From Anaerolineae bacterium (GTDB lineage: Bacteria; Chloroflexota; Anaerolineae; Anaerolineales; UBA4823), in the NCBI GenBank assembly GCA_003327455.1, contig QOQU01000001.1:258337-322336 (forward strand): a stretch of 64,000 nt of DNA, given 5' to 3'. Positions within the stretch are counted from its first letter, which is position 1, and each line of letters starts with the position of its first letter. This document shows, piece after piece, positions 20,137-26,790 of this stretch. The notes beneath the pieces are model-generated. The model had not been told where the DNA came from. It worked only from the letters and a program-made list of their open reading frames with translations, and did no database searches. A program made the translations under genes and the position numbers.

Positions 20137-20976
20137 TCATTCGCGCTCTTTCGCTCGCGGGCGAGGCAATGGGTACGGCAGAGGGATATATTCAACTGTC
20201 GGACGCCCCATCCCGGCTTGCGGGTACATGTTCATCAATTGATAGACTTCTTTGGGGACATCCGTGGAGATGGGCAACCCCAAACCCCGCGCTTCTTCAA
20301 CGGTGATCGGGTAATCGTGCGTCCAGCGTCCGCTGGAGAGGACTTCGGCAAGCGTTTCTGCCTGTTCGGGGGTGGTATGACTCATCAGGATTTCGCGTAA
20401 GGTATCTTTGACCTGCCGCATCGCCTTGCGGGCAACATCGGCTAAGATCAACGTTTCATCGTTGATCTTTTCGAGTGGCTTTTGCTCTAAGACGGCAAGG
20501 ATAGAGGCGGCCGGTTGTTGACCGATTTGCGGATCGACCGGCCCAAGCACGGCATTCTCGTCCATCACGATTTCGTCGGCAGCCAGGGCGATCATGGTGC
20601 CGCCCGACATGGCATAGTGCGGCACAAAGACGGTCACTTTAGCGGGATGGCGACAAAGGGCTTTGGCGATCTGCTCGGCAGCCAGTACCAATCCGCCAGG
20701 CGTGTGCAGGATGATGTCAATGGGTACATTCGGATCGGTTAGCTTGATCGCCCGTAAAATCTCTTCCGAGTCATTGATGTCAATATAACGGGCAAGTGGA
20801 AAACCCAGGAAGGACAGGCGTTCCTGGCGGTGAATCAGGGCAATGGCGCGTGAGTTGCGTTTGACTTCCAACTGGCGTAACATGCGCGTCCGACTGGCTT
20901 CCAGCATGCGCTGACGGATCACCGGCTGTAAGGAGGAAATGACCAGGAAGAGAAAGAATAAAATTGTAAAGTCCAT
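20137..20976 (-). CDS. Membrane-anchored Clp-fold serine protease (SDH_sah / DUF114-like)
   Basis: N-terminal TM, then IALIHRQE..IDIILHTPGGLVLAAEQIA..YAMSGGTMIALAADEI pattern. Confidence 0.6.
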   Translation of the reverse strand: MDFTILFFLFLVISSLQPVIRQRMLEASRTRMLRQLEVKRNSRAIALIHRQERLSFLGFPLARYIDINDSEEILRAIKLTDPNVPIDIILHTPGGLVLAAEQIAKALCRHPAKVTVFVPHYAMSGGTMIALAADEIVMDENAVLGPVDPQIGQQPAASILAVLEQKPLEKINDETLILADVARKAMRQVKDTLREILMSHTTPEQAETLAEVLSSGRWTHDYPITVEEARGLGLPISTDVPKEVYQLMNMYPQAGMGRPTVEYIPLPYPLPRPRAKERE

Positions 20977-20996
20977 GTCTCACCTCGCGGAGGGGA

Positions 20997-21850: not shown

Positions 21851-22579
21851 TCAACAGCCAGCTTTTTCAGCCACAATGATCACATTCGGCGAAAAGCGTT
21901 CGAGGGGTTTCTGATCAAAGCTGCCGAAGGTCGCTTGAATGCGAAAGCCAGCGTGCTCGAATTCGCCGAGCAGGAGGCTTACATCCTCCAGCGCATACTT
22001 CTGGCGATAGACGAAGCGCTGCACTTCGCCGTTGGGAAATAGTTGATCGTATCTCCACTCCACCTCGAGCCAGCCTGACTGGCGCTGCCAGGTGGTCAGG
22101 ACCTGGACCGGGTTATCGGACTGCGGATGGAGAAAAATCTCTTCCAGTTCGGCTTCCACCTTCGGTGGCAGAGTCTGGAGCAGGGCAGGGTTTGGGAAGC
22201 TCACCCCGAAGGCGCCTCCGATTTGCAAGCTCTGCCAGACATTGCTCAAAATTGCCCGGCGTTGTGGAGCGTCAAAGGTGGAATAGGTATTACAGGGCAA
22301 CAGCGCGAGCCGAAAGCCAGAAGCAAGCCCCAGGTGTCTCATATCGGCACAAAAAACATTTGCCGCCCCGCGCTGCTGCAGATAGCGCAGCATACTCAAA
22401 TCCAGATCGAAGCCAAATACCCGCAAGCCGCTATTCTGTAACGCATGATAGACTCGCCCGGTGCCGCAACCCATCTCCAGGACAGGTTCACCATAACGGC
22501 GAGCCAGTTCGAGGAAAAAGGGTATATCCTCGCTATAGCTGGCGTGATGGGCATGAAATAAGGGTGGAAAGCGATTCAC
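21851..22579 (-). CDS. Class I SAM-dependent methyltransferase
   Basis: Motif I VLEMGCGTGRV, motif II VFGFDLD. Confidence 0.8.
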   Translation of the reverse strand: MNRFPPLFHAHHASYSEDIPFFLELARRYGEPVLEMGCGTGRVYHALQNSGLRVFGFDLDLSMLRYLQQRGAANVFCADMRHLGLASGFRLALLPCNTYSTFDAPQRRAILSNVWQSLQIGGAFGVSFPNPALLQTLPPKVEAELEEIFLHPQSDNPVQVLTTWQRQSGWLEVEWRYDQLFPNGEVQRFVYRQKYALEDVSLLLGEFEHAGFRIQATFGSFDQKPLERFSPNVIIVAEKAGC

Positions 22580-22637: not shown

Positions 22638-22714
22638 CGGGGTGTGGCGCAGTACGGTAGCGCACCGCGTTTGGGACGCGGGGGTCGGCGGTTCAAGTCC
22701 GCCCGCCCCGACCT
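22638..22714 (+). tRNA. tRNA-Pro (anticodon TGG)
   Basis: Hand-folded cloverleaf: acceptor CGGGGTG/CGCCCCG, D stem GCGC/GCGC, anticodon stem CCGCG/CGCGG with loop TTTGGGA, T stem GGCGG/CCGCC. Confidence 0.9.
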
Positions 22715-23050
22715 TCGCAGTGGATTAACTAACTTGATAAGGTCGTTACTCGCTTATATTGTCACGCAAGCAACCCGAAAAAGCCGAAAGCAAGCGGAGC
22801 GGAACGCAGTGGAGCGGAGCGCAGCTTTCGGCTCAGGGTTGCTTGCGTAGGTTCGGGTGGGTGGGGGTTTGGGATGGTTTCAATCCGCGCGGGAGGCACT
22901 TCTTACCTGACACGCTCCTAACCTATCACCTGGAGAAGCGCGGTCGCGTTTTGCCAATTTTCCCCCCAGGAAAATTGAGCAAAACGGTTCATTGAATCTA
23001 TTCGACATTCTTCAACCGGATGAAAGCAATTCATCCTATACACTCTTTCT

Positions 23051-23222
23051 CTCCACAACCAGGCTAAGGCTTTCTCTCTCTGCCGGCGTTCCATCTCTGA
23101 CCTGGTTATAGCTTTCTCTCTATGCCGGCAATTCATCCACAACCTGGCCAAGTATTTCTTTCTACAACCTGGCTAAGGCTTTCTTTCTACAACCTGGCTC
23201 TGGCTTTCTTTCTCTGCCGGCG
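23051..23222. repeat. About 5 imperfect tandem repeats, core ACAACCTGGCTAAGGCTTTCT(C/T)TCT(CTGCCGGCG)
   Basis: Read directly. A related CTGCCGGCG(a/t)TCCATCTCTGACCTGG(c/t)TAT(a)GCTTC block recurs at 24894-24930 on the other side of the gene module. Confidence 0.75.
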
Positions 23223-23337
23223 GTATATCTCTCTCAGTTGTATAAGCGGTACGGGTTTATAAGGGGAAGGTTGGTTTGATGAGTAGATGAGATCGGGGTA
23301 TTGGTTGGCGGTTCGATGCGCAGACGTTCCACAGTTG

Positions 23338-23511
23338 TTAGCTGTCCGAATCCTGGTTGTTTTGGTTTTCTTCTGATTCTTTGTCTAAATCAATTCGAAA
23401 CAAAGGATAATGATTCTCTGGATAGGGATTAGCAAGGGAGATTAGGGCAAGGATGAATAGAAGGATGATGAAAGTTTTCAGGAAGCAGGTTAATTCAAGG
23501 ATATCTAGCAT
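23338..23511 (-). CDS. 57-aa small membrane protein (hand-called; MLDILELTCFLKTFIILLFILALISLANPY...)
   Basis: The ATG overlaps the upstream stop (AAATGCTAG); one TM helix. Last gene of the island module. Confidence 0.45.
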   Translation of the reverse strand: MLDILELTCFLKTFIILLFILALISLANPYPENHYPLFRIDLDKESEENQNNQDSDS

Positions 23512-23711
23512 TTGGGTTTCCTGATGGGGTTTTTCGATGGTTGAAGTTGGTTCAGGATTTCTTTGATTTGCTCCAGGCGTTCGGTGATTTTATTCAGGGC
23601 TTCAAGGTGCTTTTCGTCTTTGATTTCCTGGCGTTTCATGAGTTCGAGGGTGTACCAGATGAAGATGGCCAGGAGGGGGAATTGGATGAAGACAGGTAAA
23701 AGGTCTTGCAT
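23505..23711 (-). CDS. 68-aa N-terminal TM plus coiled-coil protein
   Basis: LPVFIQFPLLAIFIWYTL TM followed by a charged helix. Tightly packed in the module. Confidence 0.5.
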   Translation of the reverse strand: MQDLLPVFIQFPLLAIFIWYTLELMKRQEIKDEKHLEALNKITERLEQIKEILNQLQPSKNPIRKPKC

Positions 23712-23715
23712 GGGT

Positions 23716-24093
23716 TTATTCCTGGTCGGTAAGGGTTGATGCGTTTTGGGTTAGTTCATGGGTGAGTTCTTTCAGGATGTTGGTGAGGGGGTTTTGTTCT
23801 TCTCGCCGGCGAGTTTCGATGATGGATTGGGTGTTGTAGATGCGGGCGATCGAAAGGGTTATTTTCAGCATGGTGTCGATGTAGGTTAAAAGGGTTTCCT
23901 GGCTGATATTGGATGATTTCAGTTCTGCCATGATTCTTCTCCCGATTACTCTAAGGGCGTTTATTTCGGATTTTAGGGTTTCATCCAGGTTGTCAAGGTC
24001 GGCTCTTTCCAGTTGTCTAAATGCGCGGGCATAATAGCCATGTTTGAGGGCATTTAAGTTTCCTCTCGGCGCGCCTCTGTGTTTGTGATCCAT
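23716..24093 (-). CDS. 125-aa protein with an N-terminal GAPRGNLNALKHGYY motif, unknown function
   Basis: I associate the GAPxGNxNAxKHG motif with small phage/plasmid-borne proteins. This rests on memory only, with no homology search. Confidence 0.45.
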   Translation of the reverse strand: MDHKHRGAPRGNLNALKHGYYARAFRQLERADLDNLDETLKSEINALRVIGRRIMAELKSSNISQETLLTYIDTMLKITLSIARIYNTQSIIETRRREEQNPLTNILKELTHELTQNASTLTDQE

Positions 24094-24290
24094 AGGATTC
24101 TGGCTTTTTGATTGATATTGCGAAGGTGCAGGCGAACGGTTTGGGGTGATAGGTTTAGTTCTTGGGATATTTCTTTTTTCGATTTGCCGGCATTGCGCAG
24201 GTCGTTGATGATGCGTTCGGTATGGGTGAGGATGGGGATATTGTTACCGGTGAGATAATACCTGGTTTGATTGGTGATGATGATCCGCAT
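24054..24290 (-). CDS. 78-aa LuxR/sigma70-region-4-type HTH protein
   Basis: SKKEISQELNLSPQTVRLHLRNINQK helix-turn-helix. Confidence 0.55.
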   Translation of the reverse strand: MRIIITNQTRYYLTGNNIPILTHTERIINDLRNAGKSKKEISQELNLSPQTVRLHLRNINQKARILWITNTEARREET

Positions 24291-24474
24291 GGCTTGTTTT
24301 GGTTGATTGAAGTTTTTCCAGAATGGGGCGGGGGATAGGTTGATTGTTGAGCAGGCATTTGAGAAATAGACGGTATTCTTTATCGTTCAGGTTTTCGATG
24401 GCGGAGGTTGAGAAGGTGTAATGGGTTCCGTCCTGGTAGATGGTGCAGGTCATATGGGGGATGGTGGTTGTCAT
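24244..24474 (-). CDS. 76-aa hypothetical protein (start moved to MTTTIPH, 2 nt after the upstream stop)
   Basis: ORF packed as TAAGCATG after the Zn-ribbon gene; no recognisable motif. Confidence 0.4.
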   Translation of the reverse strand: MTTTIPHMTCTIYQDGTHYTFSTSAIENLNDKEYRLFLKCLLNNQPIPRPILEKLQSTKTSHADHHHQSNQVLSHR

Positions 24475-24476
24475 GC

Positions 24477-24734
24477 TTAGATTCCGAGTTTGTAGTTCAG
24501 TTCTTCTTGGAAGCAATCGTGGCAAAGGGGGAGTTCGACTTTGTAGGCGCCATCTTCACCGACGCTGGTTTCGAGGATGATAACGGCTTTGTTTCCGCAT
24601 TGGCAGTTTAGTTGTCTTCTTTTATAGGCGGGGTCGTTGCGGTGGCAGGGCAGGCATACGCCTAAGCCGTTGCCTTCTCCCAGGTAGGGAAGGTTGCAGA
24701 TTTTACAATTTGGTTTGATGCGGATGTTGGGCAT
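24477..24734 (-). CDS. 85-aa Cys-rich zinc-ribbon protein (island copy); paralog of 41206-41505
   Basis: CKIC..CLPC..CQC..CHDC; alignable with CRSC..CLAC..CAC..CEQC of the 41206 gene, including shared LPYL and VE(L/I)PLC blocks. Confidence 0.65.
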   Translation of the reverse strand: MPNIRIKPNCKICNLPYLGEGNGLGVCLPCHRNDPAYKRRQLNCQCGNKAVIILETSVGEDGAYKVELPLCHDCFQEELNYKLGI

Positions 24735-24747
24735 GTTTCCTCTCCAA

Positions 24748-24796
24748 ATAGAACGTTTGTTCTATTTATTTTAGAGAAGTTTTACTTAAATGTCAA
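24748..24796 (-). promoter_or_regulatory. Island module promoter (TTGACA 24791-24796, 17-nt spacer, TAAAAT 24768-24773) with a Cheo-type LexA box ATAGAACGTTTGTTCTAT (24748-24765) over the predicted start site
   Basis: Read directly; perfect GAAC-N4-GTTC core. Confidence 0.65.
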
Positions 24797-24947
24797 TCGG
24801 GGAATTGGCTTGCGAATGGGGCGAATTCATGCTAAGATAAGGTATCTTTCCCTCCCAAGCCTCTGATGGTTGTAAGCCATCAGGGGCTTATGTTTGCCGG
24901 CGATCCATCTCTGACCTGGCTATGGCTTCAGGTTATTAATTGAGGTG

Positions 24948-24956
24948 TGTTATAAT
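24948..24956 (+). promoter_or_regulatory. Extended -10 promoter candidate (TGTTATAAT) firing rightward into the 35-bp repeat array
   Basis: TGnTATAAT read directly; no good -35. Confidence 0.35.
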
Positions 24957-25000
24957 ACAGGTGGCTTCTCTCTATGCCCTTGATGGTTGCCATCCCATCG

Positions 25001-25187
25001 GGGGCATTTTCAATCTAACGACAATTTACCCACCGTGGGCATTTTCAATCTAACGACAATTTACCCAGCTGGGGCATTTTCAATCTAACGACAATTTACC
25101 CAGCTGGGGCATTTTCAATCTAACGACAATTTACCCACCGGTGGCATTTTCAATCTAACGACAATTTTCCCACAGGGAAAATTGTCG
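25001..25187. repeat. Five exact-period 35-bp tandem repeats (GGCATTTTCAATCTAACGACAATTTACCCA + 5 variable nt) ending in a 13-bp perfect hairpin CGACAATTTTCCC-aca-GGGAAAATTGTCG
   Basis: Unit starts at 25004, 25039, 25074, 25109 and 25144. Hairpin 25159-25187 followed by GTTCATTTTA. Confidence 0.9.
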
Positions 25188-25708
25188 GTTCATTTTAGAT
25201 AAAAACGCCCCAACCTTGCCCAAGCCGAACACGAAGTCGGATAAAGAGGTTATTTTAGCTTTTCTTATCTGAGTGGTTTTTTCAACCTTGCCCAAGCTAC
25301 GGCTGGGCAAGGCGTAAGTTTTGCCCCTAATCCCCCTATCCCGCCCCCCCATGTTAGACTTTCCTTGCTGGGGTGTGGGGGTTGGGTGGGGGGGCTTGGG
25401 GGGGCGGGAGGGGGAGGGGCAAAATTGGGGCGTGGTTCATTCTTCCAGGGGGTTTGTCAGGTGGGAAGGGGCTAGTTTTCCAGGTGAGGGCGGTCGTTCG
25501 GTTCGCATGGCTGAGCAAACGGACTATAACCCGGTCGTGTCAGGCGTTTTTGTTCAAGGGGCTATTGCATGACCTGATAACCTTTGCATTAAGTGCCTCT
25601 GTGTTTGCGCCAGCAGGTTTTGCCTGGGCATTTTCAGGCGTGGGCTGGGCGGCGCGGTTTCTTTTCCTTGTTTCTACGCCGGCGGTTGTTGAAAACGATT
25701 ATCATTAT

Positions 25709-25993
25709 CAGGAAGAGAAAGAATAAAATTGTAAAGTCCATGTCGCACGTCATGAAAACGAATTTCATTATCAATATCTTTATTCGGAGACAAGCTTCAT
25801 TTAACTTGTTTCTGCTCGAAGCCAAATACGCGCAAGCCGCTATTCTGTAACGCATGATAGACTCGCCCGGTGCCGCAACCCATCTCCGAACGTTTTTTCC
25901 GTCATTGTTCGCTTCATTTAACTTGTTTTCATCCCGGCTTTAGGACGCGGGGGTCGGCGGTTCAAGTCCGCCCGCAACTCACGCAAGCAACCC
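25709..25993. other. Collinear micro-copy of the upstream chromosome: four short blocks identical to 20944-20979, 22407-22478, 22674-22706 and 22762-22776
   Basis: Blocks at 25709-25744 (36/36), 25816-25887 (71/72), 25943-25975 (33/33) and 25979-25993 (15/15), same order and orientation. The linkers contain GCTTCATTTAACTTGTTT twice. Confidence 0.85.
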
Positions 25994-26100
25994 TGTTTTC
26001 GCTTGCTTTCCCTGGCCCTCTGGGGGTGGGTGGGTGGGGGGTGGTGGCGGTGCTTTGCTCGATGCCGGCGTTCTCGCATGTTCGCTTCTTTCTGCTGGCT

Positions 26101-26220
26101 TTGCTTGCTCAATGTCTGGCTACGATTCGGTCCGCGGTGAATGCTTGCTCAATGTCGATCTACGATTCGGTTCTCGGTGAATGCTTGCTCGGTGTCGATC
26201 TACGATTCGGTTCTCGGTGG
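26101..26220. repeat. 3 x 40-bp tandem repeat (TGCTTGCTCAATGTCGATCTACGATTCGGTTCTCGGTGAA)
   Basis: Copies start at 26101, 26141 and 26181. Confidence 0.85.
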
Positions 26221-26431
26221 TTGTTTAATTGGTGTGGCTTAACAAGAATAAAAGCGAATCCGGGTTTGGGTTAGTGGGGGAATGGCGGTTCAAGTCCGCC
26301 CGCCCCGACCTTCTGGGGGCATAAAACGATCGGTTGCGAAAGTGCGACTCCCATTTATTGTGTTTTTACTGCAAAAGCCTTAAATGGGCTGCTCCCCTTG
26401 CCCACCGAAACACCCAAACGCCTATGTCCTT

Positions 26432-26790
26432 ATCCCTCACCCTGACCCTCTCCCTGAGGGAGAGGGAACCTGACTCCCCTCGCCCATTGGGAGAGGGGTT
26501 GGAGGTGAGGGCATTCTCCAATCCCTCACCCTGGCCTTCTCCCTGAGGGATAGAGAACTTGACTCCCCTCGCCCATTGGGAGAGGGGTTGGAGGTGAGGG
26601 CATTTTCCAATCCCTCACCCTGGCCTTCTCCCTGAGGGAGAGAGAACTCAACTCCCCTCGCCCATTGGGAGAGGGGTTGGAGGTGAGGGCATTTTCCAAT
26701 CCCTCACCCTGGCCCTCTCCCTGAGGAATAGAGAACTTGACTCCCCTCGCCCATTGGGAGAGGGGTTGGAGGTGAGGGGGATAAGCCCTT
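26432..26790. repeat. 4 x 89-bp tandem array of the complete 'GEG' nested-palindrome unit
   Basis: Unit atCCCTCACCCtggCCCTCTCCCtgaGGGAGAGGGaac..CTCCCCTCGCCCattGGGAGAGGGGttGGAGGTGAGGGcatt. Copies start at 26432, 26521, 26610 and 26699. Confidence 0.9.

Follow-up and report, generated by a model that had tools for sequence, protein, structure and literature searches.

The locus described here raises the question of how a small chromosomal island can come to carry, within its own non-coding DNA, a series of short and nearly perfect copies of the sequences that stand around its integration site. It lies in a stretch of 64,000 nucleotides of an Anaerolineae bacterium (GenBank assembly GCA_003327455.1, contig QOQU01000001.1, positions 258,337 to 322,336), referred to as the window, to which all coordinates below belong unless another contig is named; the island is inserted at a tRNA-Pro gene, and the copies occupy positions 25709-26045 of its right-hand, non-coding arm. 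The arm contains two layers, namely an old attachment-like module and more recent patches of host DNA. According to the explanation that we favour, and to which we assign a probability of about 0.6, the patches were left by recombination between this internal module of the island and its left attachment site (attL), accompanied by serial template switching.

When the window was compared with itself, five collinear blocks of the arm were found to match sequences lying to their left: 25709-25744 with 20944-20979 (36/36), 25816-25887 with 22407-22478 (71/72), 25943-25975 with 22674-22706 (33/33), 25979-25993 with 22762-22776 (15/15), and a G-run at 26028-26040 with 22855-22867 (13/13, exact). A sequence-only reading of the same DNA had described the first four blocks with these identities, as a collinear series that closes the right-hand side of a tRNA-Pro island and is followed by a similar G-run, and all of this is borne out; its figures for the sequence between the blocks (1427, 195 and 55 bp in the chromosome, replaced by linkers of 71, 55 and 3 bp) likewise agree with the block coordinates. 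Two of the blocks can be extended through mismatches, the first to 44/48 over 25704-25751, with the mismatches at its ends, and the third to 39/42 over 25934-25975, and the single mismatch of the second, a C/G difference, changes CGG to CGC, which is synonymous in the methyltransferase frame as read from the sequence. Exact matches of 33-72 nt are unexpected by chance in 64 kb, and, besides the blocks and a 30-bp terminal repeat, the comparison of the island with the rest of the window gave nothing above chance matches of 13-19 nt. Gradual decay of a simple duplication, which had been discounted earlier, indeed does not account for such blocks.

The island itself has sharp boundaries. Its integration target is the intact host tRNA-Pro(TGG) gene (22638-22713, plus strand), and a 30-bp direct repeat, consisting of the last 27 nt of this tRNA followed by TTC, is found on the plus strand at 22687-22716 (attL core) and, identical in 30/30 positions, at 26284-26313 (attR core). 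An exact-protein look-up of the adjacent methyltransferase retrieved ten contigs with empty sites from other assemblies, their left flanks being 99.5-100% and their right flanks 96-100% identical to those of the window, and every contig that reaches the site joins 22716 to 26314 through one copy of the 30-bp sequence; the island is therefore a precise insertion of 3,597 bp (22717-26313) at the 3' end of the tRNA gene. Its G+C content is ~45-50%, compared with ~55% in the flanks. Furthermore, in a contig from another sample (L042) the island body runs out of its left end, from 22717 through one core to 26283 and on to 26033, so that the element exists also as a circle or a tandem array. Among the hallmarks of a site-specific integrative element, both the 30/30 repeats that regenerate the tRNA and an attP junction (for which a tandem array is also a possible source) were found, and an encoded integrase was not: Pfam and PHROG scans of the five open reading frames (ORFs) of its operon revealed no integrase or recombinase, no ORF is long enough for one, and the element is taken to lack an integrase because its largest ORF spans only 134 aa.

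These boundaries bear directly on the origin of the last two blocks. Block 4 is a copy of the left arm (TCACGCAAGCAACCC, 22762-22776) of a long hairpin in the left (P') arm of the element (22762-22848, plus strand; right arm at 22834-22848), and the source of the G-run is the G-quadruplex-type motif of the same arm (22855-22873, plus strand). Both sources lie inside the island, to the right of the tRNA, within a segment (22762-22880) that is absent from empty sites, as is the whole of 22717-26313; blocks 4 and 5 are thus an intra-element repeat of the P' arm and not copies of the chromosome, as had been supposed. The idea that 1.9 kb of upstream chromosome had been copied in spliced form consequently stands as far as the existence of the blocks is concerned, and fails in treating them as a single condensed copy.

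The third, fourth and fifth blocks together form a module resembling an attachment region, all on the plus strand. It comprises tRNA' (25934-25975), an internal copy of tRNA-Pro positions ~28-69 with the perfect core and overall identity given above; the hairpin arm D', copied from the P' hairpin, which with its junction occupies 25976-25993; and G-run' (26022-26041), a G-quadruplex-type motif with a 21-nt core that is kept in three lineages. Two of these lineages were recovered through homologues of a terminase-like protein encoded by the element, which form two groups, one at 98-99% identity, belonging to this very element in further samples, and one at 55-63%. The samples DRR318519, 3300035306 and 3300028461 hold the element at 98-99.5% identity. 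Contigs L032 to L041, at least ten and independently assembled, carry a 63% homologue, in an element located at a tRNA-Pro(CGG) gene beside a divergently transcribed inositol-phosphate synthase gene. The third lineage is represented by L045, a contig of 3,231 nt that is ~81% identical to L032 in the body and extends from the P' arm through the core, pseudo-tRNA and P-arm repeats onward for almost a full circle. At the position homologous to the micro-copy, both L032 and L045 contain a C-run' and a tRNA', together with a duplicate of the hairpin arm from their own P' arm. In the alignment of the three lineages (A2), tRNA' has one and the same first base throughout (GCGGGCGG...), the final 7 nt of the tRNA being absent. 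Adjoining it is the homologous six-nucleotide junction sequence AACTCA (window), AGCTAA (L032) or AGCTTA (L045), and beyond this the hairpin arm. Since this junction is common to the three lineages, the module is ancestral, and it appears to have been inherited by the whole element family.

Despite this common origin, the content of the module follows the lineage in which it resides. The tRNA' of the window equals tRNA-Pro(TGG) in 33/33 positions, that of L032 matches the tRNA-Pro(CGG) of its host in 38/39, and that of L045 in 47/51, with ~5 positions of the tRNA' stretch differing between the TGG and CGG genes; similarly, D' corresponds to the P' hairpin arm of its own element and differs between lineages. 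Lineage-matched tRNA' and D' sequences would require that the internal module was repeatedly homogenised with the attachment region proper, or else that a binding-site constraint is common to both, and the correspondence of tRNA' with the tRNA of each host (the episomal L045 having the same isoacceptor as the host of L032) implies gene conversion. As to its ultimate origin, the module resembles an internal P-core-P' junction with a core that was probably crippled by a deletion of ~55 bp, which would fit tandem accretion followed by decay. The right-hand unit of such an accreted pair measures only ~300 bp, too short to prove this origin, and the similarity between the region after G-run' and the left arm after its G-run is not significant. 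The element also holds a diverged full-length pseudo-tRNA that forms the P arm and adjoins the core (26231-26283, plus strand), hence two sequences that resemble a tRNA and differ greatly in age. Each element has three copies of the hairpin-arm sequence, two direct and one inverted, which lie on both sides of the att core (22762-22776, 22834-22848 and 25979-25993 in the window; 2904-2969 and 337-363 in L032). From one lineage to the next, all copies vary in concert, in the way that would be expected if they were bound by a DNA-binding protein of the element, putatively its 78-aa helix-turn-helix (HTH) protein.

Among the blocks, host gene DNA is confined to the first two. Patch A' (25709-25744, plus strand) reproduces the start codon and first 11 codons (20944-20979, minus strand) of a gene for an SDH-type ClpP-like protease (20137-20976, minus strand; PF01972, E=1e-118), copied from 4.8 kb away, and patch B' (25816-25887, plus strand) reproduces, from a distance of 3.4 kb, the region of S-adenosylmethionine-binding motif I (EMGCGTGRVYHALQNSGLRVFGFD; 22407-22478, minus strand) of the methyltransferase gene (21851-22579, minus strand). 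As the protease and methyltransferase genes are intact and identical in the empty-site strains, the direction of transfer was from host to element. Both patches are bracketed by duplicated scaffold on the plus strand. Around A', a 21-nt segment, overlooked by the sequence-only reading, is present as TGAAAACGATTATCATTATCA at 25690-25710 and as TGAAAACGAATTTCATTATCA at 25753-25773 (19/21). Around B', an 18-mer, GCTTCATTTAACTTGTTT, occurs in two identical copies (18/18), its only occurrences in the window, at 25794-25811, immediately beside the patch, and at 25911-25928, 117 nt apart from start to start with 99 nt in between; the sequence-only reading had noticed both copies and placed the second correctly, the first being displaced by one nucleotide. 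The right-hand copy belongs to a scaffold motif (25908-25933, plus strand) that matches L045 2895-2920 in 25/26 positions and L032 in 17/18 positions of the 18-mer. The linker that contains it, formerly considered unrelated sequence, is therefore conserved element scaffold. Since the motif is single-copy in the relatives and the left-hand copy is restricted to the window lineage, the latter is a local duplication. An exact scan of viral contigs for the 18-mer, considered as a mobile junction motif, yielded 18 matches in four unrelated contexts, all of them chance.

Taken together, A' and B' are most likely recent templated insertions of host DNA, scars without demonstrated function. Neither a promoter or terminator-like site nor an Rfam family was detected in 25300-26313, and the predicted fold energies of the micro-copy were no better than those of shuffled sequences (z = +1.2 and +0.8). 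The copied protease start codon opens an ORF of 35 codons (MDFTILFFLFLIMIIVFNNRRRRNKEKKPRRPAHA, 25634-25740, minus strand) with a hydrophobic helix and an Arg/Lys-rich tail, similar to a type I toxin. As a small membrane toxin, this ORF was rejected and is probably fortuitous, given that its Shine-Dalgarno positions are mismatched and that no relative carries it.

A' and B' are missing from the relatives, in which another host patch is found. It lies between the 18-mer motif and tRNA', measures 36-40 nt and is an inverted piece of the adjacent inositol-phosphate synthase gene, which it matches, as present in the host of L032, in 33/36 (L032) and 37/40 (L045) positions. Of the block structure of the window, the relatives share the tRNA'-hairpin-G-run junction and not the host patches. 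L032 and L045 differ from each other at 7/39 positions of the patch, about the same as in the rest of the elements, and the patch would accordingly be old and merely drifted. Host-patch capture appears from these comparisons to have taken place at least twice, at different times and in the same short arm.

With regard to the mechanism, the first layer would go back to the accretion of two elements in tandem, of which it was the internal att site. The deletion mentioned above would later have crippled its core, and the module would then have been homogenised in each lineage against the resident attL, whose two sides are the host tRNA and the P' hairpin. The second layer, A' and B', would have been copied from the tRNA-5' side of attL. 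The event may have started with a break or a stalled fork in the arm, which is bounded by G-quadruplex-type runs that are plausible fork-stalling sites; repair through the homology of tRNA' and D' would have invaded attL, 3.3 kb away in cis; and leftward synthesis off the tRNA into the host flank, with repeated dissociation and re-annealing between flank and scaffold of the kind seen in break-induced replication or fork-stalling template switching, would have produced collinear host patches interleaved with scaffold, twice-copied scaffold segments, and mismatches clustered at the patch ends. Template switching of this kind would account for the restriction of the patches to the 5' flank of the tRNA, their collinearity, the interleaved and duplicated scaffold, the patch-end mismatches and the occasional inverted patch. 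Exact copies of nearby sequence and local re-copying at the insertion points, both of which are characteristic of such events, were found. Among the three mechanisms put forward by the sequence-only reading, the best fit is obtained with serial template switching, whereas the lack of any residual DNA or in-frame protein homology outside the blocks contradicts a patchy conversion from a diverged donor flank.

Several observations weigh against this explanation. The overlaps at the junctions measure 0-4 nt, as read from the sequence against an approximate pre-insertion scaffold, and are not clearly above chance. A pre-insertion allele of the window-type element did not come to light, and insertion and duplication are only inferred, because the comparison is made to a relative that is ~75-80% identical. 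The B' event needs at least three switches; the inverted patch of the relatives indicates that the history is not a simple one-directional copy; and the patch differences between L032 and L045 mean that patches are not continually refreshed. In addition, a Pfam scan of the window's 13 larger ORFs revealed no recombinase. Finally, only one assembly supports the micro-copy of the window: no second one with a window-type micro-copy emerged from exact look-ups of two ORFs spanning the region, from a look-up of the 85-aa protein of the element or from a word-based search with concatenated ORF translations, and L042 ends inside G-run' at 26033, short of A' and B'. Among the matches listed, the 85-aa look-up returned L042 again, together with a further contig of 0.2-1 Mb with the protein on record.

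The rival explanation that survives best, although we consider it unlikely, is the capture of a contiguous left flank, from the protease gene through the tRNA, by aberrant excision of the lambda dgal type or by gene capture between two accreted elements, after which internal deletions would have left the blocks. The chromosomal order and orientation of A', B' and tRNA', for which the chance would be ~1/24 with three independent insertions, would be explained by such a capture, the attL-like succession of host genes, tRNA and P' arm is its expected outcome, and accretion with gene capture has been documented for elements at tRNA genes (PMC5704250). Nevertheless, the sequence between the blocks is conserved element scaffold, partly duplicated, rather than deletion debris, which contradicts a deletion series from a contiguous captured flank, one of the outcomes that the sequence-only reading had allowed for. 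The junction between tRNA' and D' is, moreover, older than the split from the lineages with the other patch, while A' and B' match the present host at 99-100% identity, and the patch of those relatives is inverted.

Quite improbable, in our estimation, is a functional cassette tuned to the host, in which the host-matching segments would serve as antisense RNAs against nearby genes, or as homology guides or anchors for integration without an integrase. Such a function would be in keeping with a host-matching patch at the same place in independent lineages, with a patch A' that spans a start codon, a classic antisense target, with a tRNA' that tracks the host tRNA, and with an element that encodes no integrase. 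However, neither a promoter, a terminator or an Rfam match nor unusual fold stability was detected in the arm, the opposite orientation of the patches relative to the scaffold in the two lineages means that no one transcript would be antisense in both, and the targets are simply the nearest genes. The drift of the relatives' patch also matches the rate of the element body, the Shine-Dalgarno positions upstream of A' are precisely the mismatched ones, and the two flanking repeats are unlike in sequence and length, hence not a repeat-spacer array. Slightly more doubtful still is the proposal that the arm is a dedicated acquisition locus, at which an activity of the element or of a helper would insert pieces of nearby host DNA with target duplication, to be used, together with the host-tracking tRNA', as guides by which an element without an integrase recognises its integration site, or as antisense regulators, a spacer-like memory outside clustered regularly interspaced short palindromic repeats (CRISPR).

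We give very little credence to patchy gene conversion of a diverged homologous flank from another host. For tRNA', a conversion of the internal module by attL does have support, and blocks 1 and 3 do fade through mismatches at their edges; still, linkers of 71 and 55 nt leave no room for homologous stretches of 1427 and 195 bp, no DNA similarity is left beyond the blocks, and in-frame protein similarity is lost as well, the micro-copy continuing after FGF with EQKQVK* and the host with DLDLSML. Weakest of all is an assembly or amplification chimera specific to this genome, which the want of a second window-type assembly and the end of L042 in G-run' would allow, and which is opposed by the independent assembly of the same architecture with another patch, by a scaffold order collinear with that of the relatives, and by the fact that De Bruijn or multiple displacement amplification chimeras do not give exact blocks of 36-72 nt bracketed by duplications of 18-21 nt. 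Indeed, homologous architecture is present in more than 10 independent assemblies and in a circular contig of the relatives, which makes an artefact unlikely.

The favoured explanation, recombination between the internal module and attL with template switching, can be placed among known systems. Cis-mobilizable elements (CIMEs) and the tandem accretion of integrative elements at tRNA genes have been described (Pavlovic 2004 and Bellanger 2011, as reviewed in PMC5704250). Like these, the present element has attL and attR repeats of a tRNA 3' end and no integrase of its own, retaining both sites in the absence of integration and transfer genes, as CIMEs do; its internal att-like remnant suggests two accreted units moving as one, and gene capture has been described for accreted elements. 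It differs in being much smaller (3.6 kb), with no sign of conjugation ancestry, in a gene set that is phage-satellite- or plasmid-like (terminase-small-subunit-like protein, HTH protein, iterons), and in that the captured host DNA consists of 36-72 nt patches interleaved with scaffold instead of genes between att sites.

Template switching during break-induced replication (BIR), microhomology-mediated BIR (MMBIR) and fork stalling and template switching (FoSTeS) have been established mainly in yeast and human genomes. Short insertions templated nearby in direct or inverted orientation, local re-copying, several switches per event and mutations near the junctions are shared with the present case; here, in contrast, the process would take place in a bacterial element, between an internal pseudo-att site and attL, recurs at one locus in separate lineages and shows weak microhomology. 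In aberrant excision of the lambda dgal and dbio type, a single contiguous flank is taken up in place of element DNA. The present element likewise contains, beside attL-type sequence, host DNA that stems from one side of its integration site, but as tiny, non-contiguous patches in a retained scaffold. With phage satellites, namely phage-inducible chromosomal islands (PICI), capsid-forming PICI (cf-PICI) and phage-inducible chromosomal minimalist islands (PICMI), it shares a small size, a tRNA-gene location, a small-terminase-subunit-like protein, a regulator and a circular form, and it differs in having no integrase, primase or replicase, or capsid-remodelling genes, and in that its terminase assignment is weak. 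Of a PICI-like satellite, which would have an integrase, a replication module and genes for helper interference or packaging, only the weak small-terminase match and an HTH regulator were found. Two other candidates were discarded: a CRISPR-like mini-array, on the grounds that the repeat pairs differ (18-mer and 21-mer), that there is no cas-like gene and that no CRISPR repeat match was found in the micro-copy; and a diversity-generating retroelement, as no ORF is large enough for a reverse transcriptase and the single difference of B' is C/G, not adenine-specific. The element is best described as a very small CIME-like or satellite-like integrative element, with patches that resemble templated insertions of the BIR/MMBIR type.

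The remaining content of the element is organized around an operon of five ORFs (23505-24734, minus strand), which code for an 85-aa Cys-rich protein, a protein of 76/93 aa, a 78-aa LuxR/GerE-type HTH protein (GerE, E=5e-10), a 125-aa protein weakly similar to small terminase subunits (phrog_1889, E=4e-6, with a Pfam match below threshold, which makes the assignment weak), and a 68-aa membrane-like protein. No relatives of the terminase-like protein were found in viral contigs. The 85-aa protein (24477-24734, minus strand), encoded by the first gene, has four CxxC-type cysteine pairs and could be placed in no family of Pfam or PHROG. Its sequence is the same in L042, and its place in the operon is conserved among the relatives; as a possible candidate, it may handle DNA in some unrecognised way for this integrase-less element. 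A near-consensus sigma-70 promoter, TTGACA-17-TAAAAT, stands ahead of the operon (24768-24796, minus strand), and just upstream of its -35 box the three lineages share an operator-like palindrome, AGAACAAACGTTCT (24749-24772 in the window, 532-554 in L045, 1306-1329 in L032). Several sets of iteron-like repeats are present in the element. Beyond the promoter, five iteron-like tandem repeats of 35 nt, followed by an inverted repeat (24994-25172), constitute a presumed replication origin, and a C-run/G-run inverted repeat (25323-25422) is kept across the element family, with 84-94% identity to L032 and L045. In all, the element contains four G-quadruplex-type G-runs and one matching C-run (22855-22873, 25324-25350, 25370-25419 and 26022-26041; 25324-25419 being the conserved inverted repeat), and the window a total of 18 G-type and 10 C-type motifs. 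Next to the pseudo-tRNA, the P arm has three 40-nt repeats (26102-26226, plus strand) whose core, CACCGAGAACCGAATCG in minus-strand reading, is also repeated in L045 (2490-2580); they may be arm-type recombinase sites or sites of a replication protein, and the core gave only chance matches in viral contigs.

As for the wider distribution of the family, a metagenome scan with the alignment of the terminase-like protein returned mostly distant phage-type proteins, among which only L045 and L046 belong to the close family. A more distant element (L098, 3479-4452), with a terminase-like protein of 113 aa, is located beside a tRNA-Pro(CGG) gene, with an inositol-phosphate synthase gene 1.6 kb away; neither an internal tRNA' nor a host patch was detected in it, and the module is thus not universal among tRNA-Pro elements. 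Among species-representative genomes, the search for close relatives of the host locus gave only methyltransferase homologues at ~40% identity. In L032 (1-173) and at the starts of L033 to L041, the C-terminal part of an ORF, assigned by eye only to an IS630-type transposase, is inserted in the P arm; such an insertion would explain the assembly breaks, and may have immobilised the L032-type copy. In the host chromosome, four tandem units of 89 nt with a palindromic core, CTCTCCCTGAGGGAGAGGG, lie between the right end of the island and an M20 peptidase gene (26432-26778); this array is found in the empty-site strains too, where overlapping blast alignments fit tandem repeats, with ~94% identity between copies. 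A photolyase gene beside the locus forms one ORF of 462 aa in some strains and two (146 and 287 aa) in others (13162-14550 in L004 and in L005), which suggests a frameshift polymorphism or a sequencing error among near-identical strains.

These elements constitute a previously undescribed family of tiny (~3.2-3.6 kb), iteron-bearing and integrase-less elements at tRNA-Pro genes of Chloroflexota-like bacteria, and public assemblies yielded all three states, the integrated, the empty-site and the circular one. Their internal pseudo-attachment site appears to have been repeatedly converted by the resident attL, host DNA being dragged in as short templated patches, which would represent a natural bacterial case of multi-switch templated insertion, a process otherwise mostly known from eukaryotic repair. 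For the annotation of genomes, blocks of this kind should not be taken for gene fragments, regulatory RNAs or mis-assemblies. The patches may instead be read as host barcodes, a record of the host in which an element has lived, by which L045 becomes assignable to a host with an inositol-phosphate synthase gene beside tRNA-Pro(CGG), and which could be used for linking small plasmids and satellites to their hosts in metagenomes.

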